Shown: in pieces, positions 10,517-40,475 of the stretch
Position numbering within the stretch: position 1 is the first letter of the stretch
How the letters are laid out: each line of letters opens with the position of its first letter
Assembly: GCA_030647655.1 (NCBI GenBank)
Contig: JAUSJH010000003.1
Span: forward strand, 11,013-75,012
Direction: 5' to 3'
Length of the DNA stretch: 64,000 nucleotides
Origin: a bacterium
GTDB taxonomy: Bacteria; Patescibacteriota; Minisyncoccia; Phycocordibacterales; UBA2100
Translations under genes and position numbers: made by a program
Notes under the pieces: generated by a model
Databases searched by the model: none
What the model was told of the DNA's origin: nothing
The model's input: only the letters and a program-made list of their open reading frames with translations

Positions 10517-10540
10517 ATGCGAACAGCACACAGAAAAAGG

Positions 10541-10992: not shown

Positions 10993-10996
10993 CAAC

Positions 10997-11506
10997 ATGG
11001 ACATCCTCTCGCACGGTTTGTATGGCGGAGTGACGTTTGGCCGGAAAAGCCGATGGGATTATTGGACGGCATTCCTCTTTGGCATCGGCCCCGACCTTTT
11101 GGCATTCGGGCCGCTTTTTTTCGTGAGCTTTTTCATTTCCGGTTCCTGGCCGGGGCATGTGGAACCGCCAAGTGCCGGAATGATCCCCGCATACGTCTCC
11201 TCTGTCTACAGCGTCACCCACAGCCTCATCATCTACGCGGTGTTCTTCGCACTTCTCTGGTGGTTGGGGAAGAGGCATTTCGCGCATCTCACCTTGGCCT
11301 GGCCGCTCCATATTTTGGTAGACATACCCACGCACTCCAATGTCTTTTTCCCCACGCCCTTTTTGTGGCCGCTCTCACATTTTTCGGTCAATGGAATGCA
11401 ATGGGGTCAGCCGGTGATATTTATTCCCAACGTCATTCTTCTCCTCTGCCTCTACTTCTACTGGTTCATACATCGCAAGCGTCGCTCCTCTCATTCGCGC
11501 GAATAG
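10997..11506 (+). CDS. Membrane-bound metal-dependent hydrolase-like protein (YdjM/DUF457-like).
   Basis: Starts MDILSHGLYGG. His/Asp-containing polytopic membrane protein of about 170 aa. Family assignment from memory only. Confidence 0.4.
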   Translation: MDILSHGLYGGVTFGRKSRWDYWTAFLFGIGPDLLAFGPLFFVSFFISGSWPGHVEPPSAGMIPAYVSSVYSVTHSLIIYAVFFALLWWLGKRHFAHLTLAWPLHILVDIPTHSNVFFPTPFLWPLSHFSVNGMQWGQPVIFIPNVILLLCLYFYWFIHRKRRSSHSRE

Positions 11507-13299: not shown

Positions 13300-14370
13300 A
13301 TGTTGCATCCGCCCTTCTACGATCCCGCCAAGACCTACTACGAAAATTGGGAGAAAGGGCCATTCAACGGTTTTGCGGACGGGGTGGTCCTGCCCGCGAG
13401 TAAGGCCCATTTTGATTTTCTAGGGGCAAAACTTTCATATCCGCTCGGCATCCCCGCAGGCCCGCTCTTGAACGCAAAATTCGTAAAAGCTTCGCTCGAC
13501 AAAGGCTTTGATGTGCCAGTGCAAAAAACAGTGCGTAGTCGTGTGCGCGAATCCAACCAATGGCCCAACGTGCTTGGGGCCGATATAGCAGGCGACTTGA
13601 CGCTCGAAATGGCGCAGAAGCCTATTGTGGTGCGCAATGAGTACAAAGAACCACTCTCTATCACAAATTCATTTGGCAATCCATCGTATGAACCTGCAGT
13701 TTGGCAGAAAGATCTGCGTGATTGCGTTTCTTATACGAAGTCGGGGCAGCTCGTCATTTGTAGTTTCGAGGGCACTAAGTGGGAAGGATTTTCAACCGAG
13801 GACTATGTCAATGACTGGGTGCAAGGCGCGCAAATGATCAAGGATGCAGGAGTGAAGGTGGTGGAGACAAATTTCTCGTGCCCCAACGAGGGCGCGGCAT
13901 CGCTCCTGTGTTTCGATGTGCCCAAAGTAAAGCTCATCACCTCGGCTATCAAAGAAAGAATTGGCGACACGAAACTCATTATTAAAATTGCGTACTTCGG
14001 AAAAGAGGAATTGCGTGAATTAGTGCAAGAAGTAGGGAATATAGTAGATGGCTTTGCCGCTATCAATACCATACCGGCGCCCGTCGTGAATCCTGACGGA
14101 ACGCAAGCGCTTCCGGGGGCTCACAGAGTGAGGAGCGGTATCTGCGGACATGCGGTCAAATGGGCAGGGCTTGATATGGTGCGCCGCCTCAAGGGTTTGC
14201 GACAAGAATTCGCTATGGAGTACGCGATTATCGGGAGCGGGGGCGTGACTGTGCCCAAGGATTTCAAAGAATATCGCGACGCGGGAGCTGATGTCGTCAT
14301 GACAGCGACCGGCGCCATGTGGAATCCGTACCTCGCCAAAGAAATTAAAGAGGCGTACCCAGATGCCTAA
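13300..14370 (+). CDS. Dihydroorotate dehydrogenase family (class-1 DHOD / dihydropyrimidine dehydrogenase-like FMN TIM-barrel) protein.
   Basis: Motifs GIPAGPLLNAKF...VPVQKTVRSRVRESNQWPNV, NFSCPNEG and IIGSGGV match the DHOD family. About 30-aa N-terminal extension. Confidence 0.65.
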   Translation: MLHPPFYDPAKTYYENWEKGPFNGFADGVVLPASKAHFDFLGAKLSYPLGIPAGPLLNAKFVKASLDKGFDVPVQKTVRSRVRESNQWPNVLGADIAGDLTLEMAQKPIVVRNEYKEPLSITNSFGNPSYEPAVWQKDLRDCVSYTKSGQLVICSFEGTKWEGFSTEDYVNDWVQGAQMIKDAGVKVVETNFSCPNEGAASLLCFDVPKVKLITSAIKERIGDTKLIIKIAYFGKEELRELVQEVGNIVDGFAAINTIPAPVVNPDGTQALPGAHRVRSGICGHAVKWAGLDMVRRLKGLRQEFAMEYAIIGSGGVTVPKDFKEYRDAGADVVMTATGAMWNPYLAKEIKEAYPDA

Positions 14371-15349
14371 TGATATCAAAGTTCGGGTAGAAAAAGCAAT
14401 CGCGGAGAAAGTGTTTCCGGGATGTGTCCTTGGGATTGTCAGAAAGAACGGTGAGCGAGAGATATTCCCATTCGGGCGCTTTACGTATGAACCAAATTCG
14501 CCAGCCGTGCGCGAGGATACGATATACGACATGGCATCGGTTACGAAATCAATTCCTGTCGCGTCGCTTGCGCTCACTTTGATTGGAGAAGGGAGGATGC
14601 GCGCTACGGACACGGTAGTGAAATATCTGCCGGAGTTGAAGAATGATTATGGGGCCACAGTTGAAGACTTGTTGACCTACCGTGTCAAAGGAACCCGACT
14701 CTCGACACTGCACGACAAAACTCCCGATGAGGTCCTGAACATTGTTTTCAAAAACGGATTCGATGGTCCGCCGGAGAAGCCCGAATATACAAATCTTCCG
14801 GCATTTTTACTCGGGCTTGTTGTCGAACGATGGTTCGACGATTCTCTCGTAAACATCGCCGAAGGTTATTTTTTTATGCCGTTGCGAATGATGGACACGA
14901 ATTTCTTCCCGCCGGACATTTCGCGGATTGTTCCCACAGAAGTTGTCGATGGTGTGGAAATTCGAGGTATTGTCCACGACGAAAGCGCGCGCGTCTTCGC
15001 GCGCGCACATCGAGCCGTCGGCCACGCGGGATTATTCTCGACCGCACCTGACATTCTTAATTTTCTAGAGAGCTTGTTGCAGGGGAAATATCAGAATATT
15101 GTCGAGGGGGCACGGCGGGGTTTGGGCTGGCAGTTAAACCAGCAATGGTTTATGGGAAAACACTCGGGAGAACATACATTCGGCAAAACAGGATTCACGG
15201 GCACGTCGGTTGTGTGTGATATCGAGCGTGGTATCGCGTTCGTCATCCTCTCGAATCGCACATACCCGAAGCGTCCGCCCGATGCTGCCTCGATACCTTC
15301 CGCCATCAATCCGTTTCGTGCGGATATTGCGGACATTCTCATGCATTAA
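14363..15349 (+). CDS. Serine hydrolase of the beta-lactamase / penicillin-binding fold.
   Basis: SxxK active-site motif (ASVTKS). Typical class C beta-lactamase-like length. Overlaps the upstream gene by 8 nt (operon). Confidence 0.65.
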   Translation: MPNDIKVRVEKAIAEKVFPGCVLGIVRKNGEREIFPFGRFTYEPNSPAVREDTIYDMASVTKSIPVASLALTLIGEGRMRATDTVVKYLPELKNDYGATVEDLLTYRVKGTRLSTLHDKTPDEVLNIVFKNGFDGPPEKPEYTNLPAFLLGLVVERWFDDSLVNIAEGYFFMPLRMMDTNFFPPDISRIVPTEVVDGVEIRGIVHDESARVFARAHRAVGHAGLFSTAPDILNFLESLLQGKYQNIVEGARRGLGWQLNQQWFMGKHSGEHTFGKTGFTGTSVVCDIERGIAFVILSNRTYPKRPPDAASIPSAINPFRADIADILMH

Positions 15350-15381
15350 TTCTTTTAAGCAAACGTGCTAGAGTGCAGTAT

Positions 15382-17208
15382 ATGTGCGGTATTTTTGCCT
15401 ATACGGGGAAGAAGGGAAAGGACGCAGGCGGGGTACTTTTGGACGGTTTATTGAGTCTTGAATATCGAGGCTACGACTCTGCCGGTATCTACACACCTGA
15501 AAGCGGGAGTGTACGGACGCCGGGGGCCGTGGCAGAACTTCGCAAGAAAATACCAAAGGGTTTTAAGGGAAAAAGCGGCATCGCACATTTACGCTGGGCG
15601 ACCCACGGCGAGCCGACGGAGAAAAATGCGCATCCACACTCGGATTGCGAAGGCGAGGTCTGGGTCGTGCACAACGGCATAATCGAGAATTTCAAGGAGT
15701 TGAAGGAAAAACTAATAAAAAAAGGACATACATTTACATCCGATTCCGACACTGAAGTTTTGGCGCACCTTGTCGAGGAACATCTAAAAAAGGAGAAGAG
15801 TTTCGAGAAAGCGGCACTCGCGGCTTTGAATGAAGTGAATGGCACGTATGGCATCGCGCTTCAATACAAGAAAGAACCAGACCGCATTATCGCGGCGCGC
15901 ATGGGCTCTCCCATAGTCTTGGGGCTTGGCGATGGTGAGCATTTCATCGCATCGGACCCGTCACCAATCCTTCCGCACACAAAAAAAGTCGTCTTTCTCG
16001 AAGACGGAGAAGTGGCCGTCATTTCACCTGATGGGCACAGGATATTCAAATTAGATTCGACAAAGGTGAAGCGTGATGCCACCAATATTGATTGGAGTGC
16101 GGAAGCGACCCAAAAGGGAGGGCATGAACATTTTATGCTCAAAGAAATTATGGAAGGGCCGGAGGTGATAGAAAATACGCTTCGCGGGAGGCTCATTATT
16201 GAAAAGGGACTTGCGAAGCTCGGCGGGCTCGAGAGCGTCGCAAAGCAGCTTGAAAAAATAGAGCGCGTCATCGTCGTCGCCTGCGGAACGGCTTACTATG
16301 CGGGCCTCGTAGGGGAGTACATGCTCGAGGAGTACGCGGGAATTCCCGTCGAAGTCGAACTGGGTTCGGAGTTCCGCTATCGCAAATCGGTCATTAATGA
16401 GAAGACGGTCGTCCTCGGTATTTCGCAATCAGGCGAGACGGCTGATACGCTTGAGGCCCTGCGCGAGGGGAAGCGACGCGGAGCACTCACCCTTGGCATC
16501 GTGAACACAGTAGGCTCCACGATTGCGCGCGAGACGGATGCGGGCGTCTACAATCACGCGGGGCCGGAAATAAGCGTGGCTTCTACCAAGGCATTCCTGT
16601 CGCAATTGACGGCGCTCGCGCTTTTCACGATGTTCTTCGGACGCCAGCGCGGAATGTCTGAGGCGACGGGACGGGAAATCGCGAAGGCGCTCAAAGAGCT
16701 TCCGGAGAAATTGCAGCAGATATTGGATACAAAGGAATCGATACAAAAACTTGCAAAGAAGTATTCAAAGGCACGCGATTTTCTCTACATCGGGCGTAAA
16801 TACAATTATCCAATCGCGTATGAGGGTGCCATCAAGCTCAAGGAAATTTCGTATGTACACGCCGAAGGCTGCGGAGCAGGCGAGATGAAGCACGGACCTA
16901 TTGCCATGATAGATGAGAATTTCCCGACGATGGCTATCGCGCCGAAAGACAGCATGTACGAGAAAATGGTGTCCAATATTCACGAGATAAAGGCGCGCAA
17001 AGGGCCCGTTATCGCTATTGCGACGAAGGGTGACAAGGAGATAGCGAAGCTCGCCGACGACGTACTCTATGTGCCGGAAACGCTTGAAATGCTCTCGCCG
17101 ATATTGAACGTCGTACCGCTACAACTTTTCGCCTACTATTTCGCAAAAGAAAAAGGTCTCAACGTCGACCGCCCGCGCAATTTGGCGAAGTCAGTTACTG
17201 TTGAATAA
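15382..17208 (+). CDS. glmS: Glutamine--fructose-6-phosphate aminotransferase (isomerising) GlmS.
   Basis: N-terminal MCGIFAY (Cys2 nucleophile) and two SIS domains (GISQSGETADT...). Length about 608 aa. ATG at 15382 preferred over the upstream GTG. Confidence 0.95.
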   Translation: MCGIFAYTGKKGKDAGGVLLDGLLSLEYRGYDSAGIYTPESGSVRTPGAVAELRKKIPKGFKGKSGIAHLRWATHGEPTEKNAHPHSDCEGEVWVVHNGIIENFKELKEKLIKKGHTFTSDSDTEVLAHLVEEHLKKEKSFEKAALAALNEVNGTYGIALQYKKEPDRIIAARMGSPIVLGLGDGEHFIASDPSPILPHTKKVVFLEDGEVAVISPDGHRIFKLDSTKVKRDATNIDWSAEATQKGGHEHFMLKEIMEGPEVIENTLRGRLIIEKGLAKLGGLESVAKQLEKIERVIVVACGTAYYAGLVGEYMLEEYAGIPVEVELGSEFRYRKSVINEKTVVLGISQSGETADTLEALREGKRRGALTLGIVNTVGSTIARETDAGVYNHAGPEISVASTKAFLSQLTALALFTMFFGRQRGMSEATGREIAKALKELPEKLQQILDTKESIQKLAKKYSKARDFLYIGRKYNYPIAYEGAIKLKEISYVHAEGCGAGEMKHGPIAMIDENFPTMAIAPKDSMYEKMVSNIHEIKARKGPVIAIATKGDKEIAKLADDVLYVPETLEMLSPILNVVPLQLFAYYFAKEKGLNVDRPRNLAKSVTVE

Positions 17209-22252: not shown

Positions 22253-22915
22253 ATGCAAAAATTCGGAGAAAGACAGAAACGAGCGCGTAGGCTTGTCGCG
22301 TACCTCAAAAAAGCGTATCCCAACCCTAAAACAGAACTCCACTATAAAACACCATTTCAGCTTGTCGTTGCGGTCGTGATGTCGGCGCAATGTACGGACA
22401 AGATTGTGAATCGTGTTACGGAAAAGCTTTTTAGAAAATACAAAAAACCCTCCTGTTTTGCAAATGCAAAGCCGCAGGTATTTGAACGCGAAATATCTTC
22501 AATCCCGTTCTTTAGGAACAAAGCGAAGCACATTATAGCGGCCGCGAAAATCATCTCCGGTGACTTTCGCGGCCGCGTGCCGCACACGGCGAAAGAACTC
22601 CAAACACTTCCCGGCGTCGGATACAAGACCGCGCACGTGATTTTGGGTGAACTATATGACACGTGGGAAGGTATACCGACCGACACGCATGTGAAGCGAT
22701 TTGCTAAGCGTTTTGATCTGACGGACGAGAATGACCTCACCAAAATATCAAAGGATTTGGAGGCGCTAATTCCGAAAAAAGATTGGAAATACGTCAACAA
22801 CGGCCTCGTTCTCCACGGCCGCTATGTCTGCCCCGCCCACCCGCATGATTGCCTCGCGCATCCGCTCACCAAACTCTGGCCCCTGGCCGCAAAGCGCTGG
22901 CCCAAAACCCGCTAG
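22253..22915 (+). CDS. nth: Endonuclease III family HhH-GPD DNA glycosylase.
   Basis: HhH-GPD motif LPGVGYKTAHVILGE...D. The C-terminus has only two Cys (CPAHPHDC), not the four-Cys Fe-S loop. Confidence 0.8.
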   Translation: MQKFGERQKRARRLVAYLKKAYPNPKTELHYKTPFQLVVAVVMSAQCTDKIVNRVTEKLFRKYKKPSCFANAKPQVFEREISSIPFFRNKAKHIIAAAKIISGDFRGRVPHTAKELQTLPGVGYKTAHVILGELYDTWEGIPTDTHVKRFAKRFDLTDENDLTKISKDLEALIPKKDWKYVNNGLVLHGRYVCPAHPHDCLAHPLTKLWPLAAKRWPKTR

Positions 22916-25113
22916 AGTCCGCGGCGAATCCTACGTGTCGTTTCGACAATGTAATTGAGTTGGTATTTTGCGGTCAGCGGTTTGTCTTGTGCATGCAGGT
23001 ATTCTTCCGCGAAACCGCCAAAACCTTTCTTGAAAAGCGAAAGGCCAGCCCACGGATGCCGAGGTCGGTCATCGGGTGAGATACCCCAGAAATTATAGAG
23101 CGTGCAACCGCGACGTTTCGCTTCCTGTATCACGCGCCACTGTAGAAGATACGAGGCGTTGATGTCCGCAAATTTCTGGAGCGAGCCGCTGTGGTGATAG
23201 AAGGCCTGCCCGTTGTAAAAAATCATGATGGCCGACGTGATGAGCTCGCCCTTGTATGAGCCGAAGAAAAATGTTGCCTCGTTGTTCGCGGCGAACAACT
23301 CGAATTCTTTTCGGAGGTCTTTTTTGCCGAATGCCGTGAAGTGCTGACGCTTGACGGTCTCCTGATAGATGGGCCAGAATTTCTCGATATCCTCCGGATT
23401 GGTGCTTTGTGTGATCTCCACCCCCTCCTTCTCCATCTTTTTGATAAGGTATCGCGTCGTCTTGCGCATCTCTTTGAGGAGAGTTTCTTCGGGCTTCGTG
23501 ATATCGAGCATCCACGATAGTTCCGGATGCATGTGAATGGGCGCGTTGCGGAATCCGAGTTCGTGGTACAGCAGCTTGTTTTCAGGCGAGGGTTTTGCGA
23601 GCGGACAGAAACGGATGAAATCGCATTCTTCGACACGCGCAATACGTGTGGCCTCCCGCGCGATGTGCCGGAGAAGACTCTCCTCGTTTTCGGTTGTACT
23701 TATTGCGGGGCCATGCGGACACAAAAGAAATGAACCGCGGCGGGCATCTATTTTTATGAAAAGCGCCACGGCAACAACATCCTCACCTTTACGCATCGCG
23801 ATGCGGAATATCTTTGACCCCCCTTGCTCATACTGTTCTCCCCAGACCCACGATTGCAAAAAACTGTGCGGCTTTTGTTTTACGAGGAATTTCTCCCATG
23901 CATCTTTATCGGCCGACGTTATCGTGTACGGCGCATCCACATCGGCTTTCAGCCATTCGTTAAGGCTTTGCGCAATAATACGTGCCTGTCCGGCGGACAC
24001 ATTGATATGTGTCGAAAGATTCACGATGCGATTCGAAATATCTTCCGCATGCGGACACTCATTTTTGTAATTCGTATGGTGCAGATATTTCTTGGGCGCC
24101 ACTGGCGCGTCGTACCAAGTGTCCGAGACATACACATATGCTTCTCTGAAATGCTCAATAAGGCGGTCTCTGCCTTGCACGAGAATAGGGAACCGGAGGT
24201 TGGCGGCGTTTTTTAAATCGTAGGTCAGCCGGATGTCTTTATTGAGTTCTCGCGCGTATACCTCGGCGATTTCGCGCCTGTGTGCGGCGGTTTTTTCCAA
24301 TGCCCCATACTGTCGTAGGATATTCGCGCAATACCATCCGGGTAGCACATGGGCTCCACTGCCATTGTTGCTGAATGGTGTCGAAAGAATCCCTAGCGTG
24401 CGCCACATTTGATGGAGAAATTTTCCGATACCCAAGGGATAAAAAGCCCTGATTTTCCAAGTAAGTCTCGGATAGAAGCGATCTTTTAATTGTTTCCCGA
24501 AGGGGATTTTCTTCGTTGGTGGAGAAATTGTCTTGTATTTCTCATTGCGGACGATGAGCGCGCCACCGGAGACTGCATCTACGACTTTGTCTTGGCTGAA
24601 TGAAAGGACCACAAAATCTCCGACAGTCCCAGCTTCACGTCCGTCCGCATAACGCGCGCCGATTGAGTGCGCCAAGTCTTCAATCAGGATAATTCCATGT
24701 TCTTTACAGAAAGCGGCGATAGGTTCGATATCACATGGAATACCAAGCGTATTTTGCACAACGACGGCTTTGATAGAGGAGTTTGAGTCGACTGCAGTAC
24801 GGAACGTTTCGTACGAAAAATCGAGAGAGTTTTCTGCGATGTCGAGATAGTGGACCGAGTGACCGCTTTCTGCTATCGCCTCATAGACAGCAAGACACGT
24901 GAATCCATTCATTGCGACCGCACCTTCGGGGAGCGCCTTAACGGCGAGCGATAGCGCTTCGCGGCCTTTGTAGGTGAGGATTGCGCGCCCTCCGTAGCGC
25001 GTCTCAAGGTATTCTGTCAATTTTCTCTGCGTCTCTTTTCCACCATATGAAAACAATATCTGCCACCCAGAGAGAAACGTGTAGTTCGAACCAAGAGAAT
25101 TGAAGACGTTCAT
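22912..25113 (-). CDS. Bifunctional fusion: N-terminal DegT/DnrJ/EryC1/StrS-type PLP-dependent aminotransferase, C-terminal FemAB-family aminoacyl-tRNA-dependent transferase.
   Basis: N-half has the DegT-like lysine motif SFSQDKVVDAVSGGAL and the ...IEDLAHSIGA region. C-half has the FemAB-like FLQSWVWGEQY start and the characteristic central helical segment (LLKEMRKTTRYLIKKMEKEGVEI). Single 733-aa ORF with ATG. Confidence 0.6.
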   Translation of the reverse strand: MNVFNSLGSNYTFLSGWQILFSYGGKETQRKLTEYLETRYGGRAILTYKGREALSLAVKALPEGAVAMNGFTCLAVYEAIAESGHSVHYLDIAENSLDFSYETFRTAVDSNSSIKAVVVQNTLGIPCDIEPIAAFCKEHGIILIEDLAHSIGARYADGREAGTVGDFVVLSFSQDKVVDAVSGGALIVRNEKYKTISPPTKKIPFGKQLKDRFYPRLTWKIRAFYPLGIGKFLHQMWRTLGILSTPFSNNGSGAHVLPGWYCANILRQYGALEKTAAHRREIAEVYARELNKDIRLTYDLKNAANLRFPILVQGRDRLIEHFREAYVYVSDTWYDAPVAPKKYLHHTNYKNECPHAEDISNRIVNLSTHINVSAGQARIIAQSLNEWLKADVDAPYTITSADKDAWEKFLVKQKPHSFLQSWVWGEQYEQGGSKIFRIAMRKGEDVVAVALFIKIDARRGSFLLCPHGPAISTTENEESLLRHIAREATRIARVEECDFIRFCPLAKPSPENKLLYHELGFRNAPIHMHPELSWMLDITKPEETLLKEMRKTTRYLIKKMEKEGVEITQSTNPEDIEKFWPIYQETVKRQHFTAFGKKDLRKEFELFAANNEATFFFGSYKGELITSAIMIFYNGQAFYHHSGSLQKFADINASYLLQWRVIQEAKRRGCTLYNFWGISPDDRPRHPWAGLSLFKKGFGGFAEEYLHAQDKPLTAKYQLNYIVETTRRIRRGL

Positions 25114-25838
25114 GCTTGTTTTCTGCCGGAGGCGGATACTCCACCGTAGGACAGTTCCTCCATAATGAGATCAGCAAGTTCGCGCGTATGGGTAATATGC
25201 GGCGAGTGGCGAGCCCCTTGTATAACGACCATGCGTGAGCCGCGTATCCCTTTGTGTATCAATTCTCCGTCCGCAAGTGGTGTCGTCGCATCGTTTTCAC
25301 CCCAGATGATGAGGGTGGGACAGTGTATGTTATCCAATACGAGCGAAAGGTCGACGGAAAGAAGATTTGACATCGTTTTTCGCATTTCAGGCGTCGCGCT
25401 CCCATAATCGCTTGCGCGGATCGCTTTGCGGAAAATACTGCGTAAACGTTCGAAACGAATAAGGCGTCCAAGCAGCTCCGCGGATTTCCTGAACGCGTCA
25501 CGTTTCAATTTGCGCAAGCCGCGCGGAGGAATACCGGCACTGTCTTCGAGAATAAGCCGCACGACTTTTTCCGGGTGTTTCGCGGCAAAGGCGAGCGAAA
25601 CGCGGCCACCGTGGGAGTGTCCATAGAGAATGATTTTTTCGTAAGCGGCAGTTTTTTCTTCCAGCCAGTTCACATAGTCATTCAGCGTCCACACCGGATT
25701 CGTGCCGTCCGTGAGGCCGGGAATGAGAAGAAATTCGAAATCAACTCCACGTTCTGTGAGCAAATCAAGAAGTGGCTGCCACGTCTCAGTCTGATATGTC
25801 CAGCCATGAAGGATAAAAATCTTAGTCATAGTCCCCAT
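25110..25838 (-). CDS. Alpha/beta-hydrolase fold protein.
   Basis: GHSHGG nucleophile elbow, His near C-terminus. 4-nt overlap with the downstream fusion gene and overlap with the upstream Mur ligase (operon). Confidence 0.65.
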   Translation of the reverse strand: MGTMTKIFILHGWTYQTETWQPLLDLLTERGVDFEFLLIPGLTDGTNPVWTLNDYVNWLEEKTAAYEKIILYGHSHGGRVSLAFAAKHPEKVVRLILEDSAGIPPRGLRKLKRDAFRKSAELLGRLIRFERLRSIFRKAIRASDYGSATPEMRKTMSNLLSVDLSLVLDNIHCPTLIIWGENDATTPLADGELIHKGIRGSRMVVIQGARHSPHITHTRELADLIMEELSYGGVSASGRKQA

Positions 25839-27085
25839 TGTGCTCGGCGCTTCTGCCACACCGCTTCGCGGCGGCACAATTTTGCGACATCTCTTTTGTC
25901 CAAGAGTAGATGTTCAATAATACCTTCCAAAAAGCGTGCGCCCTTGAATACAAGCGTTTCTCGGCCGTTAAGAGATGACTGCAAATACTGGAGTGCATCC
26001 TTCGGGTTGATGAACGAAATGACGTCCTTCGATTGTTTGAGAAGCGGGAGCGTGTGTGCAGCGAGTCGCGGCCCGACGAGTATGAGCTTTTGAAAGCCGC
26101 TACCCTGCAGAAGTCGCGCAAGCTTTTCATGCTCTTCTTTTTCGAGACCACCTTGCTCGGTAAGATCGCCGAGGATGAGCCATTTGGAAGTGCCGGGCAA
26201 CCCTTCTGACATACCGATAATGACTCTCACTGAATCGGCATTCGTGTTGTAGCTTCCGTCGATGATGGTTGTGTCGCGTATGCCTCTGAATATCGAGCTT
26301 CTACCGGGGGGCAAAGTGAACGCCGAAAAATCAATCGTTGGCCGTATGCCTAAGTACTCGGCGATTTTGACCGAAGCCGCAATTGCGTAAAATGTTTCTT
26401 TTGGGAGCAAAAAGGGAATTCGGTATGTTGCTCCGCGTATTTTGAAAACAGTCCCATCGTTGCGGACTTCGTAGCCCTCGAGCTCCGTCTCTTTGACCTC
26501 GTGCACTTTAGCCTTCGTGCGGCGCATCTGTTTCATTATGAGCGGATTATCGGCGTTCATGATAACGAGCGAAGACGCACACCCCGTGAAATATCCGAAC
26601 TCATGTGAGATGGCTTCGTCCACGCTCGCAAACTTTCCGGCTCGTACGGATTTTTCGAAATTCTGGCTGTGCGTTCTCGCGGAGCTTAACCACACAACCA
26701 CTTCTGGGCGCAAGAGCGAGCTAAGAAATTGCCCCTCTCTCGGCCGGTCGCAATCCGCTTCCACGATGTATATTTTCTCTGCATATGGTTTTCTCCATGC
26801 AGAGATCGGCGCGAGGAGAAAAAGCCGTGTCCATTCGAGAGGCGAATAGGTGAGGCGTTTGAGGCCCAAGATATCGAACGGGATGCCGAATGAGCTATTG
26901 GCGCCGTGCGAGTATTTAGCGGTTTTGCCAAGCTGTGCTTCGACGAGGTGCAGGGCCGTGGTTTTACCGTTGGACCCAGTGATAACGACGATGCGCGGTT
27001 TCCAGCGTGCAAGGCGGATTGCCGCGAAGAGCCTGAAGTACCAGGCAACGAGGAAATACAGTCTATTTTTTATGCTACGCACCAT
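25826..27085 (-). CDS. Mur ligase family protein (MurF-like).
   Basis: P-loop VITGSNGKTT. C-terminal IIDGSYNTNADS matches the Mur-ligase DxSYNxN motif. 419 aa. Confidence 0.7.
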   Translation of the reverse strand: MVRSIKNRLYFLVAWYFRLFAAIRLARWKPRIVVITGSNGKTTALHLVEAQLGKTAKYSHGANSSFGIPFDILGLKRLTYSPLEWTRLFLLAPISAWRKPYAEKIYIVEADCDRPREGQFLSSLLRPEVVVWLSSARTHSQNFEKSVRAGKFASVDEAISHEFGYFTGCASSLVIMNADNPLIMKQMRRTKAKVHEVKETELEGYEVRNDGTVFKIRGATYRIPFLLPKETFYAIAASVKIAEYLGIRPTIDFSAFTLPPGRSSIFRGIRDTTIIDGSYNTNADSVRVIIGMSEGLPGTSKWLILGDLTEQGGLEKEEHEKLARLLQGSGFQKLILVGPRLAAHTLPLLKQSKDVISFINPKDALQYLQSSLNGRETLVFKGARFLEGIIEHLLLDKRDVAKLCRREAVWQKRRAQWGL

Positions 27086-27176: not shown

Positions 27177-27875
27177 GTGCGAATGAGTGAAAAGCGCAAG
27201 GTGGCGATATTCGATGTAGACGGAACCATTTTCCGCTCCAGCCTCCTCATACAAGTCGTGAATCGGCTTATTGAGAAAGATGTGTTCCCGGCCTCGACGC
27301 GACGGGTATACGAGCGCGAGTATGAACGCTGGCTTAATCGCGAGGGGGATTATGAGGAATACATCGGCGCGGTGGTGAAAGCGTTCGTCAGGCACCTCAA
27401 AGGTGTACATTACAGCGCCCTGGCGGATGCGGCCGAGGAGATCGTCGCCGAACAGCGGAAGCGCGTGTATCGCTATACGCGTGATCTTCTGAAGGACCTC
27501 AAGAAACGCGGATATTTCTTGCTCGCGGTGTCGCACTCGCCGAAGACCGTTCTCGACAAATTCTGCCCGAGGCTGGGATTCGATAAGACCTACGGCATGA
27601 TATACGAGATCGGCCCGACGGAATGTTTTACGGGGAATGTAATAGAAGAACATCTTATTCTCAACAAATCTGCCATAGTGCGCCGCGCAATGGAAAAAGA
27701 GAATCTCACACTCACACACTCAATTGGCGTGGGGGACACAGAGACGGACATTCCATTTCTCGAGATGGTCGCTAAACCTATCTGCTTCAATCCAAATGCG
27801 AAATTGTATCGATACGCGAAGCGGATGAAGTGGGACGTTGTTGTAGAGCGAAAAGACGTCGTCTATGAACTCTAG
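27177..27875 (+). CDS. HAD-superfamily subfamily IB hydrolase (phosphoserine-phosphatase-like).
   Basis: VAIFDVDGTIF motif I, GVGDTETDIPFL motif III. Confidence 0.65.
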   Translation: MRMSEKRKVAIFDVDGTIFRSSLLIQVVNRLIEKDVFPASTRRVYEREYERWLNREGDYEEYIGAVVKAFVRHLKGVHYSALADAAEEIVAEQRKRVYRYTRDLLKDLKKRGYFLLAVSHSPKTVLDKFCPRLGFDKTYGMIYEIGPTECFTGNVIEEHLILNKSAIVRRAMEKENLTLTHSIGVGDTETDIPFLEMVAKPICFNPNAKLYRYAKRMKWDVVVERKDVVYEL

Positions 27876-34467: not shown

Positions 34468-34500
34468 GCGCGGCACCAATATTGGCGCCGCGCTGGTATT
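34468..34500 (+). terminator. Near-perfect 26-nt palindrome (GCGCGGCACCAATATTGGCGCCGCGC) after groEL; probable terminator.
   Basis: Long GC-rich hairpin followed by a T-rich tail. Lies between the groEL stop and the ATG of the giant gene. Confidence 0.45.
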
Positions 34501-34508
34501 ATAGAAGC

Positions 34509-37500
34509 ATGTACTGGCCTCGCGTTGCGGGAGTTTTCGGGGCATCCCTGTTATTTTTTATGTTGGCGAGTGCACCATTTGTGTATGCGAAGGATAGAGC
34601 CGCTGATGCGATGTGCCTTCCTCCCGACGACACTCACGGATACAAAAAGGGTTTGGAATATGATGCTCTGTACAAAGACGGTGATAAGGAAAAGCGGAAT
34701 TTATACAACAAGAAATGCTTCGATGATTTCGTAACAGGAATATGTGACCGTGAGGATTATTGCGAGGGAAAGCAATGTTTCAGTGATGGAAAGTGGGGTA
34801 ATTGTGAGCTCTATCACCAGAAGACCACGAACGGCCAGATTCAGAACTGCTACGTCGGAGTTCTTGACTGCTCAAAACCATATACTCCCGGACAGGGCAC
34901 GGGGGTTGCACCTCCGCCATCGGAAAATCCTTCGCTTCCGCCACTCACACACGACGGTAAATCCATTCTGCAGACACTGCAAGATAATGAGCAACCGTCG
35001 GGTCCACTGCCCCAATCTGCGAACAACGTGCAGCAATTAATCGAGCAGGCTGCGCAAAATCCGGACACGCCATGGTCGCTTGAAGGTATTAAGAACGTAC
35101 TAAACGATGTACGAAGTTTCCTTTCTCCGGAATCAGCCACTTTTCTCACGCCGACACCACAAGAATCGGGAGCGGTAAATGAACAGTCTCAACGGACGGA
35201 TGAAATTACAGGATTGCCTGTCACTGATACATTCGGACAACCGCAAACGCAAACAGAGCAAAAGACCTCTTTTTTGGATACGTTGGGTGAAGCATGGAAA
35301 GAGGTGAAAAGTGCCGTGAGTGACGCTGGTACGTGGATTGCCGATCTCGTCACTCCAAATCCGGAAGAGACACCAACCAATCCAGCTAATGGTTTTGCCG
35401 AGAATAATGCAGCATTGACCGACCCTGATGTTAAGTCAGATGTTCCTCCCACCATTCCGCCGGACCAAATAGCTTCTCGAGAACCCAGTGTCTCTGAAAC
35501 TCCAAAAGAATCAGTAGATAGAGCTCAAGGAATAGCGAGCGTTCAGCCTACTGCGAAAGAATCATCGCCGACGTCACCGAACGTAGGGCCCACAGCAAGT
35601 CCGGACATAGTCAAAAAAGCCGCACAAGCACTCTCTGATGCAACAGAAGCGTTCGGTGCCGCCCGCGGCTATTCGAAGGAAGGAATGGAGAATGTAAAGG
35701 GCGGTCTCGGCGCGCTCGCCCAGATGGAATCGAGGTTCGATCCAAGTATCGGTTGTAACGAACCCGGCTACTGCGGCTTCGGACAGCTCTCTGAAGGGAA
35801 GAGCAGTTCGCACGAAAATGAAACTGCGCTTGCACGTAACACACTTGGCGCTCTTTCCCAATCGCCAAACTTGAGCCCCGAGCAACAAGCACAGGTGTCA
35901 CAAATAGTCGACCGAATAGACTCGATGCAAGCACAGGGAAAAAGTCCGAATGCAGATCCGGAAACAGGCGCATGGCTCCTTGCGGCTCGGCAGGCGCAAA
36001 TGACGGATATCGGTAAGAATGTCTCGCCGATGGATGCGGCGGCAAAATACGCGCAAACACCCACGGACGCTGCTGGGATTATGTTCGGCGCGCAGCTCGC
36101 CCCGTCGATGTATGGAAAAGGATTCAACCCGGACGCACCGCTTTCTTCGGGTGCTATCAATGCGTTCAACAGCAATAAGGTCTCTGTCCAGTCGGGAAGC
36201 ACGATGTCAGATGCAATAGCGGCCATGCAGGAGCAGCCGATATACAGGCAACGCTTCGCGGAGGGCATCGGTATTATAGGCGGGGGAACATATAGCAGTC
36301 CAGACCCATTAATCTCAGCAAAGCCACCTGGGTCATACTTTGATACAGCACTTCAGAACGGCGGTCTTTATCAGGAGCCGACTTTCCAGCAATCCGTGTA
36401 CGACATGTATGGCGAGAGTACCGACAATCAAAATGTTGCCGAGGCAGGTTTCCAGAACTACAACACCGAGCAAGCCGACACCGTTCTCAAGTTTGCCGCA
36501 GGATGGGAAGGCACGTTCGCAGGTAGTGCGCAAGAAAATGCAAACATAGCCGCTCAACAAGCCTTCAACACCATCGCCCACCCAGAAGACTGGCCGCAAC
36601 TTCCCGCGCCAACCTACGATCTCGACGCCGCCAACGCCGCAGAAGCTGTGCGTCTCGCAGAAAGTGGAGCTTTCGATTCCGGAGTCTCTCTCACGCAAGA
36701 GCAGGTCCAAGCCGCATACGATGCCGCCAACAACGAAGCTAACAAACCCGAGAGTTGGTTTAAGTCAAAAGTCGTCAATCCGCTTTACGACAATGTCATT
36801 GATCCACTTAGAAATTCTCTCGGCCTGAATTCGCCGCAACCGAATCCAGTCGTGCTTCCAGATTCGCGCTCGTTGTCAGACCGAGTAATCGAAAGCATTC
36901 CTTCGCCGCTTAAACCGAGCCCGACCATTGCAGTGCAAACGGAAAGCCTACCTCCGCCTATGGATTATCCAGCTTCGCAATTAACAGGCACATACTACGG
37001 ACCTAACGGTGAGATTATCAAAGCGGATGTAGCGGGAGTTGAAATTACGCAACCAAGGGGTGAGATAAGCGCGTTCATTCCATCGGACAAGCTTGGGAAC
37101 ATGACTGTTGGCGACGTGATAGCGCAAGCCAAGGAACGCCCGCGCACAGAAACAGCCCAGGAAATGGAGCCGTATGGCCCACCGGTTCCGAACCGTACTA
37201 CCCCGACGCCGGTGGAACTCGAAGCGGCAACCAAGATTTTAGACGACAAACTTTCGAGCGCCCGCACCGCTGTCGAGGTGGCGAAAGCTGTAGCCGAAGC
37301 CGCACCAACAGATTTCACCAAAGATTCAGTACGATTATTAGAACAGCGACTTGCGCAAATAGAGGAATACGGTCGACAATACCGGGAGTATATGGTTGCA
37401 GGTGGCCTACCGCCGGAATGGCTCTCGAATGCCGTTGATACGGCAAGAAAGGGTGAGGGATACATATCGCAGGGCTTATCGGCATTTTCGGACGCGGCAC

Positions 37501-40475
37501 ACGGCAACGCAGCGATGGCTGAAGCAAATCTTCGTACTGTCTGGGACGAGACGAAAAATGAAAGTAATCTATCGCTCTCGCAGATGGCGCGACTTACCGG
37601 GAACAGCCTATGGTGGGCTGCGGAATCCGCAGCCGGTCTCGTCGGCGGTGGGCTGAAGACAGGTAGCGAACTTGCGGGGCTGAGTAATCCGAATCTCGAC
37701 AACGCGCTCAAACAACAGCTCGACCCGGAAGGGGAAGGTATAAAAGCTGCGGCTATCATTGCGCCGTTTGCCTACAGCGGATTACGTCACGGAGGCGAAG
37801 CCGTGCTCGATCGGGTTTTTGGGGAGGTAGTTACCTCGGAAGTAAGCGCAGGTGCGCGGACAAGTGCCGTCGAGGCCGTTGGCGTCCGCGATAGTGCTGG
37901 ATTCGTCCAACGCACAGCTCCTGTCGAGGATCTCAGTATCGCACGGGCGACTCCCGAAGTGCCGCGTGTTGCGGAAACACCCCCACCACTTTCTCTGGCG
38001 GATTCTGCGGGGTCTTCCTTACCAAAGGCGGCGAATGTTGACCCTGTGGGAGATGTATTTGCACCGCCGACCAAAAATCTCGACGATGCATTCGCAAAGG
38101 TTGAGAGAGCAGCCGATGAGTTTAAATCTCCTGGGAGCGCAGAACCTTCCGCGCCGCCCGCGTCGGACAATCCTTTCTTGAAGGGCACGGATAATATTAC
38201 TCGTCGTGCGGCAGGAGAGGCGGAGGTGTCCAGTCCGGCGGCTAGTGGTATTAAAGATGCTGCTGCGGAGATTGACAGGATAGCGGCAGAAGCTCGCGCG
38301 GCGGCTAAAGCGCCAATTCCTGAGGTCAAACCTGCGGCGGAGGTGCCCGCTCCATCCGGCCCACCGAATCCGGGAGAGTACGTGCCTACTATTAAGGACA
38401 AATTTGCAAGTATGTGGGATGGTCTCAAGACAACGGCCACCGATTGGAGAGACAGGTTATTCGGCAGAGAAATCACCGAACCGGTAAAGGCTCCGGCCTT
38501 GTCTCAAGATGAACTTGCATTGCAGCGCATGACAAATGAAGGGGGCCCTGTGCCGCCGGAGCGCACCCCGTCCACCCCTGCTCCGGGGCTTGGGTCGCAG
38601 GGGGAGGCATCTTGGGAAGGCGGATTCGCGCAACGGCCCGGAGCACCCACTGTCGATTCCGCCAACTGGACTGGCGGCAAGGACTTCAAGGGATTTGATC
38701 TGACCACACCCGACTCCAACGCACCACTTCTTAAACAATCTCTTGAGGGTGACTTCATGTATCCACAGGCACCCAAACCACTTGCAGAAACAACCATTGC
38801 GCCCGCACCGCCTGTAGAGACAAAGACATTGTGGCAGAGCACAAAGGAACTCTTCGGACTTGGTGAAAAACCGTCGACACCAGCACCTTTGGCTCAAGCA
38901 GAACGTGATGCGTTGGCGGCGGGAGACCAAGCTCGTGTGGTGGAACGGACTCCGAGGCCCGAGGCGAGCGCAAAGCCATTGACCGACGATGAACTTGCGC
39001 TTATCAGGCAGGTAGAAGTGGGCACCGTGCCAAACCCGCGTACCGCCGCGCTGACACCAGATGCGGCGAACGTACCAGTCGTTGCGGACAGACCAGTTCC
39101 TGTATCTGAACCGTCTCTCTGGGAACGGTGGTTTGGAAAGAGCGAGCCGGCGGCAATTGAGACGCCAAAGGTAGCGGTTGTGCCTGAGACTACGCCAACG
39201 CCAAAGGCTCTAGATGCTACTGCGCCCAGAGCCGAACCGTCGCCAGCAGAAGCAACCCCTCCCGCACGGCCGGCTGCGGAGCCTGCGCCAATTGAGCCCG
39301 TGAAGAGAGGTAGCGGCGATGTTTCGAAACCGAACGCCGAGATAGCGATGGGGGATGAAGGCGCTGTACCGCTCAAGCCGGGCGCGGAGAATCCGTCCGG
39401 AAAAGTATGGAACGACAAATCGCTGACTCGTGATGAGTTTATTGCTGACTACAAAGCTGTCTATCCTAAAACCAGTCTCACCGATGCGCAGCTGGCCGAA
39501 CGATATGCCGTTGGACAACGGCTCAACCCAGAGACTGGCAGGCTGAAGGTTCCGGAGACTCAAGTAGCTCCCGGTATTGCTCCAGCAGCGCCGACGCCGG
39601 GCGGAGCAAAGACAGGCGGAGGTTCGTCAGCAGGATTGGACGCTTTGAAATCCACAGCAAGCTTTTGCACAGGCGGACTATTCAGATTCGGAGTTTGTGT
39701 CGGCGTTGGCGGCGGCATTTATTACGGAGTATCGAACCTATGGAATGGTCTCTGGCCGAGCAGCCAAACTCCACCGCCGAATGTGGAAACACCGCCAAAG
39801 GATGACCAAAGCACGGCCGTGCCGGATAAAGACAAGGATGCGCCGCCCCCAAGGAGAGAGGTCTCACCACCCTATCAGCCGCCAGTCGTTAGGCGCGATG
39901 TCGTGCCTATCGGTAGTGTGTATGCGCCACCAATCTGGAATCCAAATGGTGGTCCCATTCTCTCTCAAGACTATTACTGCATTACGAGCATTCAGCCCGT
40001 TATCGTTATTCCGCTCTCAGCCGGTTCGCAATTCCCGTCGAATTGCTACAACAGCTACTCGGGCGGACAAGGTGGTTCTGGGAACCCTTTCAGCATGCTC
40101 GGACAAATGCTCGCCAGAGCCTTAGGCATTCAGCCGACACCGCTACAGCCACCTATGCCGCAAACTCCGCCACCTACGAACCCCCCACCTATTATTATTC
40201 CGCCGCGGGCCACGTCGACTCCGCAAAAGCCCATCGTCACGCTCATTGCGAATCCGGCAACCGTCGCGCCTCAAGGCAAAGCGCGTCTCTCGTGGTCTAG
40301 CACGGGGGCATCAGTTTGCGGCGTCTTTATGCCGGACGGCGCGAAAATTGGAGAGGGAAATCCGGACGGTTCGACTTCTACGCCCCCACTTGCCGCCACG
40401 ACCGTATTTACCGCCAAATGTTCTGCGACGTCGGGCGCGACAAGCTCTGCGCAAACGACTGTAACTGTTCGCTAA
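34509..40475 (+). CDS. Giant (1989 aa) secreted low-complexity protein with Cys-rich N-domain, lytic-transglycosylase (SLT/lysozyme)-like motif and Ig-like C-terminus.
   Basis: Signal peptide MYWPRVAGVFGASLLFFMLASAPFVYA and 10-Cys N-domain. MESRFDPSIGCNEPGYCGFGQL resembles the family-1 LT ES-x-F-x-P...G-x-G-Q motif. Over 1200 aa of A/P/E/T/Q-rich linker with internal DELAL-R repeats. Gly-rich hydrophobic segment and Pro-rich plus Ig-like C-terminus. Confidence 0.6.
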   Translation: MYWPRVAGVFGASLLFFMLASAPFVYAKDRAADAMCLPPDDTHGYKKGLEYDALYKDGDKEKRNLYNKKCFDDFVTGICDREDYCEGKQCFSDGKWGNCELYHQKTTNGQIQNCYVGVLDCSKPYTPGQGTGVAPPPSENPSLPPLTHDGKSILQTLQDNEQPSGPLPQSANNVQQLIEQAAQNPDTPWSLEGIKNVLNDVRSFLSPESATFLTPTPQESGAVNEQSQRTDEITGLPVTDTFGQPQTQTEQKTSFLDTLGEAWKEVKSAVSDAGTWIADLVTPNPEETPTNPANGFAENNAALTDPDVKSDVPPTIPPDQIASREPSVSETPKESVDRAQGIASVQPTAKESSPTSPNVGPTASPDIVKKAAQALSDATEAFGAARGYSKEGMENVKGGLGALAQMESRFDPSIGCNEPGYCGFGQLSEGKSSSHENETALARNTLGALSQSPNLSPEQQAQVSQIVDRIDSMQAQGKSPNADPETGAWLLAARQAQMTDIGKNVSPMDAAAKYAQTPTDAAGIMFGAQLAPSMYGKGFNPDAPLSSGAINAFNSNKVSVQSGSTMSDAIAAMQEQPIYRQRFAEGIGIIGGGTYSSPDPLISAKPPGSYFDTALQNGGLYQEPTFQQSVYDMYGESTDNQNVAEAGFQNYNTEQADTVLKFAAGWEGTFAGSAQENANIAAQQAFNTIAHPEDWPQLPAPTYDLDAANAAEAVRLAESGAFDSGVSLTQEQVQAAYDAANNEANKPESWFKSKVVNPLYDNVIDPLRNSLGLNSPQPNPVVLPDSRSLSDRVIESIPSPLKPSPTIAVQTESLPPPMDYPASQLTGTYYGPNGEIIKADVAGVEITQPRGEISAFIPSDKLGNMTVGDVIAQAKERPRTETAQEMEPYGPPVPNRTTPTPVELEAATKILDDKLSSARTAVEVAKAVAEAAPTDFTKDSVRLLEQRLAQIEEYGRQYREYMVAGGLPPEWLSNAVDTARKGEGYISQGLSAFSDAAHGNAAMAEANLRTVWDETKNESNLSLSQMARLTGNSLWWAAESAAGLVGGGLKTGSELAGLSNPNLDNALKQQLDPEGEGIKAAAIIAPFAYSGLRHGGEAVLDRVFGEVVTSEVSAGARTSAVEAVGVRDSAGFVQRTAPVEDLSIARATPEVPRVAETPPPLSLADSAGSSLPKAANVDPVGDVFAPPTKNLDDAFAKVERAADEFKSPGSAEPSAPPASDNPFLKGTDNITRRAAGEAEVSSPAASGIKDAAAEIDRIAAEARAAAKAPIPEVKPAAEVPAPSGPPNPGEYVPTIKDKFASMWDGLKTTATDWRDRLFGREITEPVKAPALSQDELALQRMTNEGGPVPPERTPSTPAPGLGSQGEASWEGGFAQRPGAPTVDSANWTGGKDFKGFDLTTPDSNAPLLKQSLEGDFMYPQAPKPLAETTIAPAPPVETKTLWQSTKELFGLGEKPSTPAPLAQAERDALAAGDQARVVERTPRPEASAKPLTDDELALIRQVEVGTVPNPRTAALTPDAANVPVVADRPVPVSEPSLWERWFGKSEPAAIETPKVAVVPETTPTPKALDATAPRAEPSPAEATPPARPAAEPAPIEPVKRGSGDVSKPNAEIAMGDEGAVPLKPGAENPSGKVWNDKSLTRDEFIADYKAVYPKTSLTDAQLAERYAVGQRLNPETGRLKVPETQVAPGIAPAAPTPGGAKTGGGSSAGLDALKSTASFCTGGLFRFGVCVGVGGGIYYGVSNLWNGLWPSSQTPPPNVETPPKDDQSTAVPDKDKDAPPPRREVSPPYQPPVVRRDVVPIGSVYAPPIWNPNGGPILSQDYYCITSIQPVIVIPLSAGSQFPSNCYNSYSGGQGGSGNPFSMLGQMLARALGIQPTPLQPPMPQTPPPTNPPPIIIPPRATSTPQKPIVTLIANPATVAPQGKARLSWSSTGASVCGVFMPDGAKIGEGNPDGSTSTPPLAATTVFTAKCSATSGATSSAQTTVTVR

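Follow-up and report, generated by a model that had tools for sequence, protein, structure and literature searches.

Within a 64,000-nucleotide stretch of a Patescibacteriota genome (GenBank assembly GCA_030647655.1, contig JAUSJH010000003.1, positions 11,013 to 75,012; hereafter the window), we examined a compact gene cassette on the minus strand that encodes a Mur ligase, an alpha/beta hydrolase, and a protein joining a DegT-type pyridoxal phosphate (PLP) enzyme to a FemAB-type domain. The three open reading frames (ORFs) are located at 25826-27085 (ligase, 419 aa), 25110-25829 (hydrolase, 239 aa when read from the ATG that overlaps the ligase stop codon), and 22912-25113 (DegT::FemAB fusion, 733 aa in one ORF). 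The hydrolase stop and the fusion start share the tetranucleotide ATGA, which is a 4-nt overlap. At the junction of ligase and hydrolase, the overlap is again an ATGA of 4 nt if the hydrolase starts at 25829, or 13 nt if it starts at the ATG at 25838. A further alternative start, a GTG at 25877, gives a 255-aa hydrolase reading (25110-25877); the 52-nt overlap into the ligase that this requires is probably not real, because orthologous hydrolases begin at the MTKI/MKKI position, and 25829 is the most likely start. On one side of the cassette lies a HAD-family gene (27177-27875) in divergent orientation, and on the other an endonuclease III gene (22253-22915) in convergent orientation, which overlaps the fusion stop by 4 nt. 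These boundaries therefore delimit a three-gene operon, as had been described in an earlier note based on the sequence, and the motifs quoted there (GSNGKTT, DGSYNTN, GHSHG, SFSQDK, and FLQSWVWGEQ) are all present. A scan for promoters and terminators gave no signal beyond the shuffled expectation.

The N-terminal part of the fusion (residues 1-392; 23938-25113, minus strand) is a predicted DegT/DnrJ/EryC1-type PLP domain, as assigned by Pfam and by sequence and fold matches in the PDB. The Pfam model DegT_DnrJ_EryC1 (PF01041) matches residues 29-383 with E 5.6e-39 and 134.8 bits, compared with a gathering threshold of 19.8, and the Foldseek matches (ArnB, WbpE, PseC, and others, E 1e-16 to 1e-20) are fold-type I PLP enzymes. 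The putative Schiff-base lysine K176 (codon 24586-24588) is located in SFSQDK (residues 171-176; 24586-24603, minus strand) and falls on the SF(x)xxK lysine in alignments to solved DegT enzymes, which bears out the PLP-lysine context claimed in the earlier note. This lysine is kept in all full-length fused homologs except P0057, which has a gap at the site. Asp146, expected to pair with the PLP pyridine nitrogen, is part of EDLAHS (24664-24681, minus strand), which matches the EDxAxA of solved DegT enzymes, and is conserved across all aligned fused homologs. By both sequence and fold, the PDB matches of the DegT half are sugar aminotransferases, and its relatives of known function all act on keto-sugars or cyclitols. 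Such relatives would fit an amino-sugar or surface-glycan route, in which the DegT domain aminates a nucleotide-keto-sugar, the Fem domain N-aminoacylates the product, and the ligase and hydrolase extend or trim a peptide. At the sequence level, however, only the N-terminal half of this domain (~190 residues) aligns to solved enzymes, and no NCBIfam equivalog for a named sugar aminotransferase, such as PseC, WecE, or ArnB, comes near its cut-off, the three best scores being 82 bits (cut-off 420), 82 bits (423), and 75 bits (375).

The C-terminal part (residues 397-733 and the stop codon; 22912-23925, minus strand) is a predicted FemX-like double-GNAT domain, assigned by Pfam and fold, that has no coiled-coil insert. 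FemAB (PF02388) matches this C-terminal half with E 1.1e-34 and 120.4 bits against a gathering threshold of 24, and Acetyltransf_6 also matches. The best PDB fold match is Weissella FemX (template modeling [TM] score 0.82 on the target, root-mean-square deviation about 3 Å), and the sequence matches are FemX and FemA. The FLQSWVWGEQ block corresponds to residues 418-427 of the fusion, and the motif LFKKGFGG (23014-23037, minus strand) contains F694-K695, which in the FemX alignment are the equivalents of Phe304-Lys305, including the catalytic lysine, of the Weissella viridescens enzyme. The role of Lys305/Lys329 has been described, and the Phe-Lys pair is needed for aminoacyl transfer (PMC12945691). 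Residues F694, K695, G697, F698, G699, and G700 are invariant in 31 fused homologs. Judging from these alignments, both the PLP and the Fem catalytic centers look intact. The FemX residues that bind uridine diphosphate (UDP)-MurNAc-pentapeptide are not obviously kept, which would also suit a sugar substrate: Arg211, a UDP contact, aligns with Phe in the phmmer alignment and Lys36 lies beyond the aligned stretch, and lipid II-using Fem enzymes also differ there. The AlphaFold2 (AF2) model of the fusion has a mean predicted local distance difference test (pLDDT) score of 88.5 and a predicted TM score of 0.69.

In genomes without the fusion, the genes for DegT (about 405 aa) and FemAB (about 345 aa) overlap by 13-26 nt, such that one indel could join them, and the 733-aa ORF might in principle be an assembly or frameshift artifact. 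We regard this as exceedingly improbable, because the fusion recurs across independent assemblies: full-length fused homologs form about 57 clusters (722-765 aa, 55-72% identity) from NCBI, JGI, ENA, and Logan assemblies and share a conserved short linker. The single ORF is thus genuine, as the earlier note had read it.

The ligase matches Mur_ligase_C (PF02875, E 2.7e-9) and Mur_ligase_M (PF08245, E 4e-6); like those for DegT_DnrJ_EryC1, FemAB, and Abhydrolase_1, these matches exceed the curated cut-offs, in agreement with the domain assignments that had been made by eye. Its best profile model is TIGR01143 (murF) at 112 bits, below the cut-off of 288.6, and its best PDB sequence matches are the MurF proteins of Escherichia coli and Thermotoga. 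MurF structures fill the top 10 Foldseek PDB matches of the AF2 model (pLDDT 91.7), MurT, MurC, and pseudomurein ligases rank lower, and the label "MurF-like" given previously holds at the fold level. Residue ~97 of E. coli MurF (1gg4) is the first that aligns with the ligase, and the ATP-binding P-loop GSNGKTT is located at residues 37-43 (26957-26977, minus strand). As judged from this alignment, the protein lacks the N-terminal UDP-binding domain and has the central and C-terminal domains only. The P-loop residues G37, S38, K41, and T42 are invariant in 33 ligase orthologs, and the Glu/His motifs are conserved. Differences appear in the C-terminal domain, where the canonical MurF motifs DDxYNANP, GDMxELG, and KGS(R/Q) read DGSYNTN (residues 276-282), GDLTEQG (26150-26170, minus strand; identified from alignments), and KGAR-FLEG. 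More generally, ligases of the cassette type have GD(L/M)xEQG and KGAR-FLEG with a 3-residue deletion, whereas canonical MurF and the Patescibacterial MurF linked to D-alanine-D-alanine ligase (Ddl) keep GDM(N/x)ELG. The N-terminal domain is also missing from Saccharibacterial MurE (428-432 aa) and from the Ddl-linked MurF-like protein (about 400-430 aa); its loss is a trait of the phylum and does not distinguish the cassette ligase. The idea that its absence proves a non-MurF substrate was rejected, given that Patescibacterial MurE and the essential Ddl-linked MurF lack it as well. Patescibacterial MurE (428-455 aa) and Ddl-linked MurF without this domain were seen at loci L087 (10001-11299 and 19047-20333), L083 (2920-4287), and L088-L166. 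An N-terminal hydrophobic helix of the ligase was considered as a membrane anchor and rejected, as it aligns with the helix that precedes the P-loop in all MurF.

The hydrolase matches Abhydrolase_1 (E 1.3e-17), Abhydrolase_6, and Hydrolase_4 above the curated cut-offs. Its nucleophile elbow, GHSHG, is encoded at 25608-25622 (minus strand; residues 86-90 of the 255-aa reading), and the triad of Ser (GHSxGG), Asp (WGxxDxxTP), and His (H[SAT]P) is invariant in 11 orthologs, including three ligase::hydrolase fusions. The profile models assigned it to no specific subfamily (BioH, 72 bits against 207). A valacyclovir-hydrolase-like amino-acid esterase identity was not adopted, since that match spans only the last ~55 residues.

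The distribution of the cassette was assessed by protein searches and by inspection of about a dozen distinct loci, with flanks read to ±10 kb. A scan of genome contigs with the ligase alignment, which used the generic P-loop as its pattern, gave mostly canonical MurF loci, and the cassette loci L003 and L004 are among the matches listed. The order ligase-hydrolase-DegT-FemAB is kept in L001 (894-kb contig), L002 (1.14-Mb contig), L003/L167-169 (L003 being from Saccharibacteria), L085, L086, and L171, and a rearranged version, DegT-FemAB-alanine racemase-ligase-hydrolase, was found in L004 (Paceibacteria). The cassette, whose recurrence in related genomes the earlier note had proposed to check, does recur, except that relatives usually carry four genes, with DegT and FemAB as separate, overlapping genes. 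The window holds the form typical of Kaiserbacteria, and the cassette as such, with its four genes for ligase, hydrolase, DegT, and FemAB, occurs across Patescibacteria. The names attached to the homologs place the organism close to "Kaiserbacteria." In a neighbor-joining tree of DegT domains, fused proteins form three separate clades with differing junctions. One is the Kaiserbacteria type, the second (P0058/59) falls among Levybacteria-like sequences that are not fused, and the third (P0061/63/71) belongs to Saccharibacteria. DegT and FemAB were thus, on the evidence of this tree, fused at least three times independently. The ligase and hydrolase are fused as well, in P0434, P0437, and P0452, and the first of these is encoded directly upstream of DegT-FemAB (L171). 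Because both types of fusion exist, the cassette is composed of two two-enzyme modules, namely, ligase with hydrolase and PLP enzyme with Fem transferase.

An exhaustive search of 1.84 billion representatives, in which the ligase::hydrolase fusions were found, yielded 166 clusters (50% identity) at E<=1e-30 for this type of ligase (clade B, defined below). Such conservation across the classes of a minimal-genome phylum bears on whether the cassette could have nothing to do with the cell's own wall and instead make a secondary metabolite or antimetabolite, a small peptide as in the DhpH/PacB pathways. DhpH, the closest characterized fused architecture, does come from an antibiotic pathway, and Fem-like enzymes participate in several natural-product routes (PMC12945691). 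Nevertheless, the cassette is embedded among housekeeping genes, in the position of murF-ddl (see below), and no export, resistance, or phosphonate genes were seen near the cassettes, which makes this explanation very unlikely.

The genes near related loci belong to peptidoglycan synthesis: MurE, the diaminopimelate decarboxylase LysA, and extra FemAB genes in L083, and alanine racemase (Alr) in L004. Together with the murF-ddl position, they uphold the link to peptidoglycan precursors made in the earlier note. The same neighborhoods tell against the amino-sugar route. No sugar 4,6-dehydratase, oxidoreductase, or glycosyltransferase was found in or beside the roughly dozen distinct cassette loci examined, and the genes that are present act on the peptide stem. 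In Southlakia epibionticum, which has no cassette, the only DegT is an ordinary sugar-type enzyme located beside an oxidoreductase, and it is non-essential (PMC10633639); it scores E 3e-131 on PF01041, versus E 6e-39 for the cassette type. With the equivalog scores also far below their cut-offs, we consider the amino-sugar route improbable, and the suggestion in the earlier note that the DegT half acts on keto-sugar nucleotides is not retained.

Several other features of these loci deserve description. Besides LysA, L083 (Saccharibacteria) encodes a Fem domain fused to DegT and two others, of which one lies upstream and one directly downstream (1623-2543, 8001-11191, and 14003-15157); the downstream Fem domain is 44-46% identical to unfused cassette FemAB elsewhere. 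In L085, a RimK-family ATP-grasp ligase (8643-9539; TIGR00768, 207 bits) is encoded two genes upstream of the cassette. Genes related to tRNA occur beside cassette or Fem genes and differ by locus (an AlaX-like editing protein, CysRS, ValRS, and LeuRS; L171 7178-7855, L086 12226-13596, and L087 5046-7601). The donor amino acid is not readable from these neighbors, as no single synthetase is consistent. A placement of LeuRS beside the Fem genes of L083 and L087 was rejected, because the synthetase in question (851 aa) shares only about 22% identity with LeuRS; the corresponding protein is annotated as ValRS in S. epibionticum. The latter organism carries several Fem paralogs, which are essential (PMC10633639 supplement), and its ML1 transposon sequencing (Tn-seq) table (PMC10633639) includes MurE, MurF, two FemAB, and a MurT/GatD-like pair (SEML1_0702/0703), with no entry named D-alanine--D-alanine ligase or alanine racemase.

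In the source annotations, cassette proteins are labeled "Mur ligase family protein," "FemA/FemB family protein," or "hypothetical." Our search of the literature on cell wall genes of Patescibacteria (candidate phyla radiation), FemAB/FemX, Mur ligases, DegT, and dcw/murF found no description of the cassette. Each enzyme family is known; the combination is new.

By alignment and tree, the Patescibacterial ligases were divided into two clades, with clade A composed of Ddl-linked MurF-like proteins and clade B composed of the cassette type and its relatives. Clade A, first seen in the complete genome CP039997.1, comprises proteins of about 400-430 aa that score 224 bits on TIGR01143 and keep the motifs APEHMEFF, DDTYNASP, GDMNELG, and KGSQ. 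These genes adjoin Ddl in at least 10 metagenome loci, where Ddl matched solved Ddl structures at E 6e-41, and one adjoins FtsI (L159). The clade A counterpart in S. epibionticum, SEML1_0599 (annotated as MurF), is essential in Tn-seq (PMC10633639 supplement). In the tree, the window ligase belongs to clade B, which is sister to clade A. Compared with the canonical MurF examined, both clades lack the N-terminal domain, carry a ~25-residue insert after NxxxGxP, and share the C-terminal tail KL(V/C)R(Q/R)..W..(K/R)(K/R). Two further features mark clade B, namely, the motif DSSYN and an insert that follows the His motif. In its hydrolase-linked subclade, to which the window ligase belongs, GDLxEQG and KGAR-FLEG occur in the domain that in Mur ligases receives the incoming amino acid. 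Less derived clade B ligases keep GDMRELG; one of these, in L174, adjoins DegT-FemAB without a hydrolase. A few genes upstream of that ligase and DegT-FemAB, L174 (1389-3514) encodes YcaO and nitroreductase-family proteins, a pair resembling those of ribosomally synthesized and post-translationally modified peptides.

Comparison of gene neighborhoods indicates that clade B ligases stand where clade A ligases stand in related genomes. Related environmental Saccharibacteria share the flanks M48 peptidase-LigA-orf70-[X]-LeuRS-NusB-NUDIX-RNaseIII-S16-KhpA-TrmD, with proteins that are 57-91% identical. Position X is occupied by clade A murF immediately followed by ddl in L152, L154, and L144, and by ligase-hydrolase-DegT-FemAB in L169 (same as L003 and L167); the ligase gene begins right after orf70 in both genome types. 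The cassette replaces murF-ddl at the same locus in these related Saccharibacteria. Ddl was not found in the flanks of any of the 12 cassette locus records, and tblastn of 79 murF loci detected no cassette within 10 kb. A second position, after LepA, is occupied by a clade A ligase in L124 and by clade B ligases in L170 and L173. In the window, MurJ adjoins LepA (47512-51003), as in L124, and LepA is followed by tRNA-Gly and small ORFs, with no ligase. With regard to the ligase, the earlier note had pictured a simple MurF that supplies FemX. This does not hold for a diverged clade B enzyme that is tied to a hydrolase and replaces murF-ddl in situ.

Replacement also bears on the possibility that the cassette is an accessory module, for tailoring or for an alternative precursor, that acts alongside housekeeping MurF and Ddl. 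In such a module, the Fem enzyme would start the bridge by attaching its first residue to the side chain of Lys, the ligase would serve as a MurF paralog that adds a non-standard unit or accepts a modified stem, and the PLP enzyme and hydrolase would provide or trim an unusual residue. Analogies exist in the MurF2/VanK pairs of glycopeptide-resistance clusters and in Lif-type self-immunity. The FemX-like fold and catalytic residues agree with this explanation, as do the several Fem paralogs of Saccharibacteria, essential in S. epibionticum, and the occurrence of cassette ligases and Ddl-linked MurF as distinct clades that are both found within Saccharibacteria. Moreover, S. epibionticum lives without the cassette, which is therefore not universally required. 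Yet the cassette stands in place of murF-ddl, with no addition, and a plain bridge-forming FemX would leave the repeated DegT::FemAB fusion unexplained. The sole apparent co-occurrence of cassette and murF (OGL37933 versus OGL37951-54), in one metagenome-assembled genome (MAG), was rejected as a mixed bin of two related organisms, because both contigs carry their own LeuRS-NusB-NUDIX-RNaseIII-S16-KhpA-TrmD block. We therefore view an accessory role as somewhat unlikely. The MAG concerned (a Rifle Saccharibacteria MAG with L144 and L169; OGL37933-OGL37958, locus tag A3J32) contains two LeuRS that are 53-56% identical. The LeuRS downstream of the cassette (10001-12922 of L167/L168/L169, equal to 14285-17206 of L003) has 973 aa with a NUDIX domain inserted after the editing domain, and those of related murF-ddl genomes have 815-962 aa.

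We propose, with a probability of roughly 0.45, that the cassette is an alternative module that finishes or re-routes the peptidoglycan stem peptide, with the ligase as the MurF-equivalent and the other enzymes in place of Ddl. These correspondences are proposed because the cassette occupies the exact murF-ddl slot in related genomes; we infer the substrates, the order of reactions, and the functional equivalence to MurF and Ddl. In the first enzyme pair, an ATP-dependent MurF-type amide ligase with a remodeled C-terminal site for the incoming substrate would act with a Ser-Asp-His hydrolase. In the second, a DegT-type PLP enzyme would act with a FemX-type aminoacyl-tRNA-dependent transferase, in a manner resembling DhpH, and channeling from the former to the latter is argued because their fusion is repeated. 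Through transamination or alpha-carbon chemistry, the PLP step may make or reshape a building block that bears an amine; one candidate is a keto acid converted to an amino acid, and another is a newly added residue whose alpha-amine is free. The Fem step would then form a peptide bond to that amine with an amino acid from aminoacyl-tRNA. Under this proposal, the ligase would be the MurF-equivalent of cassette-bearing organisms, and the hydrolase, PLP enzyme, and Fem transferase would supply or edit the unit that it adds, replacing the ATP-grasp Ddl. In a more specific form, which we consider rather unlikely, many Patescibacteria would complete the stem without Ddl by a tRNA-dependent replacement of D-Ala-D-Ala: DegT and FemX would assemble the terminal unit, with a keto or amino acid and aminoacyl-tRNA as starting materials, alpha-carbon chemistry would set the stereocenter, and the remodeled MurF and the hydrolase would attach the unit.

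Several points weigh against this proposal. The cassette proteins are described here from sequence and predicted structure, and the absence of murF and ddl refers to the ±10 kb flanks and to the 64 kb available of the window's genome. Clade B ligases in L170, L173, and L176 have no DegT-FemAB in the flanks that were read. Aminoacyl-tRNA brings L-amino acids or glycine, and DD-transpeptidases require a D-D terminus, such that the proposed route needs an epimerizing or stereo-inverting PLP step; to our knowledge, no DegT-family enzyme is known for such chemistry. The scheme does not account for what the hydrolase does. The alanine racemase in L004 fits an ordinary D-Ala-using MurF equally well, and a FemX-type enzyme beside a MurF-type enzyme is also typical of an ordinary branch-adding pathway.

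The cytoplasmic steps of MurA-F, Ddl, and Alr are treated as near-universal and include the targets of D-cycloserine and, via the D-Ala-D-Ala terminus, of glycopeptides. Patescibacteria may form a large share of bacterial diversity, and many lineages appear to carry a different enzyme set at the murF-ddl position. If the cassette does substitute for MurF and Ddl, the terminus of the stem peptide would be reached by new chemistry, textbook accounts of how the Mur pathway ends would need changing for much of bacterial diversity, and the wall chemistry of these epibionts might be accounted for. New activities would be implied as well, namely, a DegT-fold enzyme that acts on amino acids or peptides and a Fem enzyme that acts upstream of MurF. 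Even as an accessory branch pathway, the cassette would be a conserved, uncharacterized wall module. Overall, the observation in the earlier note is confirmed and its interpretation is partly supported.

Elsewhere in the window, other wall-related genes encode a PG_binding_1 protein, a GH18 hydrolase, a polysaccharide deacetylase, a beta-lactamase-family (penicillin-binding protein-like) protein, and GlmS (12-1307, 2408-3601, 9845-10516, and 14363-17208). A 1997-aa ORF with a TTG start (34482-40475) is located in the most G+C-rich, A-skewed part of the window. A 400-aa minus-strand ORF (54903-56105) had no Pfam match at E<=1e-4 and sits between a 191-aa ORF (54324-54899, beside tRNA-Phe) and HisRS. 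The RNA genes are a bacterial type A RNase P RNA (122.9 bits) and four tRNA genes, Ser-GGA, Gly-CCC, Arg-CCT, and Phe-GAA (44768-45119, 43651-43736, 51803-51874, 53210-53282, and 54217-54292).

Among known systems, MurF is the obvious reference for the ligase. Both have the central ATPase and C-terminal domains, the P-loop, the Glu/His motifs, and a DxxYNA motif, and the cassette ligase occupies the murF position in related genomes. Unlike MurF, the cassette ligase has no N-terminal domain, is 21-28% identical to canonical and Ddl-linked MurF, scores below the TIGR01143 cut-off, and has GDLxEQG in place of GDMxELG and KGAR with a deletion in place of KGS(R/Q). It also has the extra insert after the His motif, and its adjacent or fused partner is an alpha/beta hydrolase, with no Ddl neighbor. 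Another parallel is MurT/GatD, in which a Mur-ligase homolog without the N-terminal domain forms an obligate pair with a small hydrolytic enzyme encoded alongside. However, MurT fold matches have TM scores of 0.40-0.56, compared with 0.7 for MurF, the cassette partner is a Ser-Asp-His hydrolase and no glutaminase, and Pfam assigns Mur_ligase_C to the cassette ligase and no DUF1727. Furthermore, Saccharibacteria have a separate MurT/GatD pair (SEML1_0702/0703). In glycopeptide-resistance or producer clusters, MurF2 and VanK are likewise encoded together, as an additional MurF-type ligase and an additional Fem-type transferase that produce an alternative stem peptide. The cassette differs in having no VanH/VanA/VanX homologs, in its PLP enzyme and alpha/beta hydrolase partners, and in replacing murF-ddl with no supplementing.

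For the DegT half, the sugar aminotransferases of the DegT/DnrJ/EryC1 family (PseC, ArnB, WbpE, WecE, and perosamine synthase) share fold-type I, the SFxxxK lysine, and the EDxAH aspartate motif. In contrast, the usual SGT and VH(L/Y)(Y/F)G read KGR and VQNTLG in the cassette DegT, the alignment to solved enzymes is limited to the N-terminal residues noted above, and sugar-activating genes are absent near the cassettes. The Fem half resembles W. viridescens FemX in its double-GNAT fold without a coiled coil and in the invariant Phe-Lys pair at Phe304-Lys305. It differs from FemX in being covalently or translationally coupled to a PLP enzyme, and the FemX equivalog model, whose cut-off is 500 bits, gives it only 49.

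For the fusion as a whole, DhpH of the dehydrophos pathway likewise has a PLP-dependent domain at the N-terminus and a FemX-like domain at the C-terminus. The architecture, which the earlier note did not recognize from characterized systems, thus has a precedent. The PLP domain of DhpH reportedly produces the amino acid analog L-Ala(P). Its FemX-like C-terminal domain, DhpH-C, adds Leu from Leu-tRNA to L-Ala(P), giving Leu-Ala(P) (PMC12945691). The general logic suggested in the earlier note, in which an amine made by a PLP enzyme is aminoacylated from aminoacyl-tRNA, therefore has a characterized precedent, and by analogy the same logic is possible for the cassette. The likeness is one of domain order: DhpH comes from a Streptomyces phosphonate antibiotic cluster with no Mur ligase or hydrolase partner, whereas the cassette, seen with no phosphonate genes nearby, is a feature of Patescibacteria core genomes in a cell-wall context.

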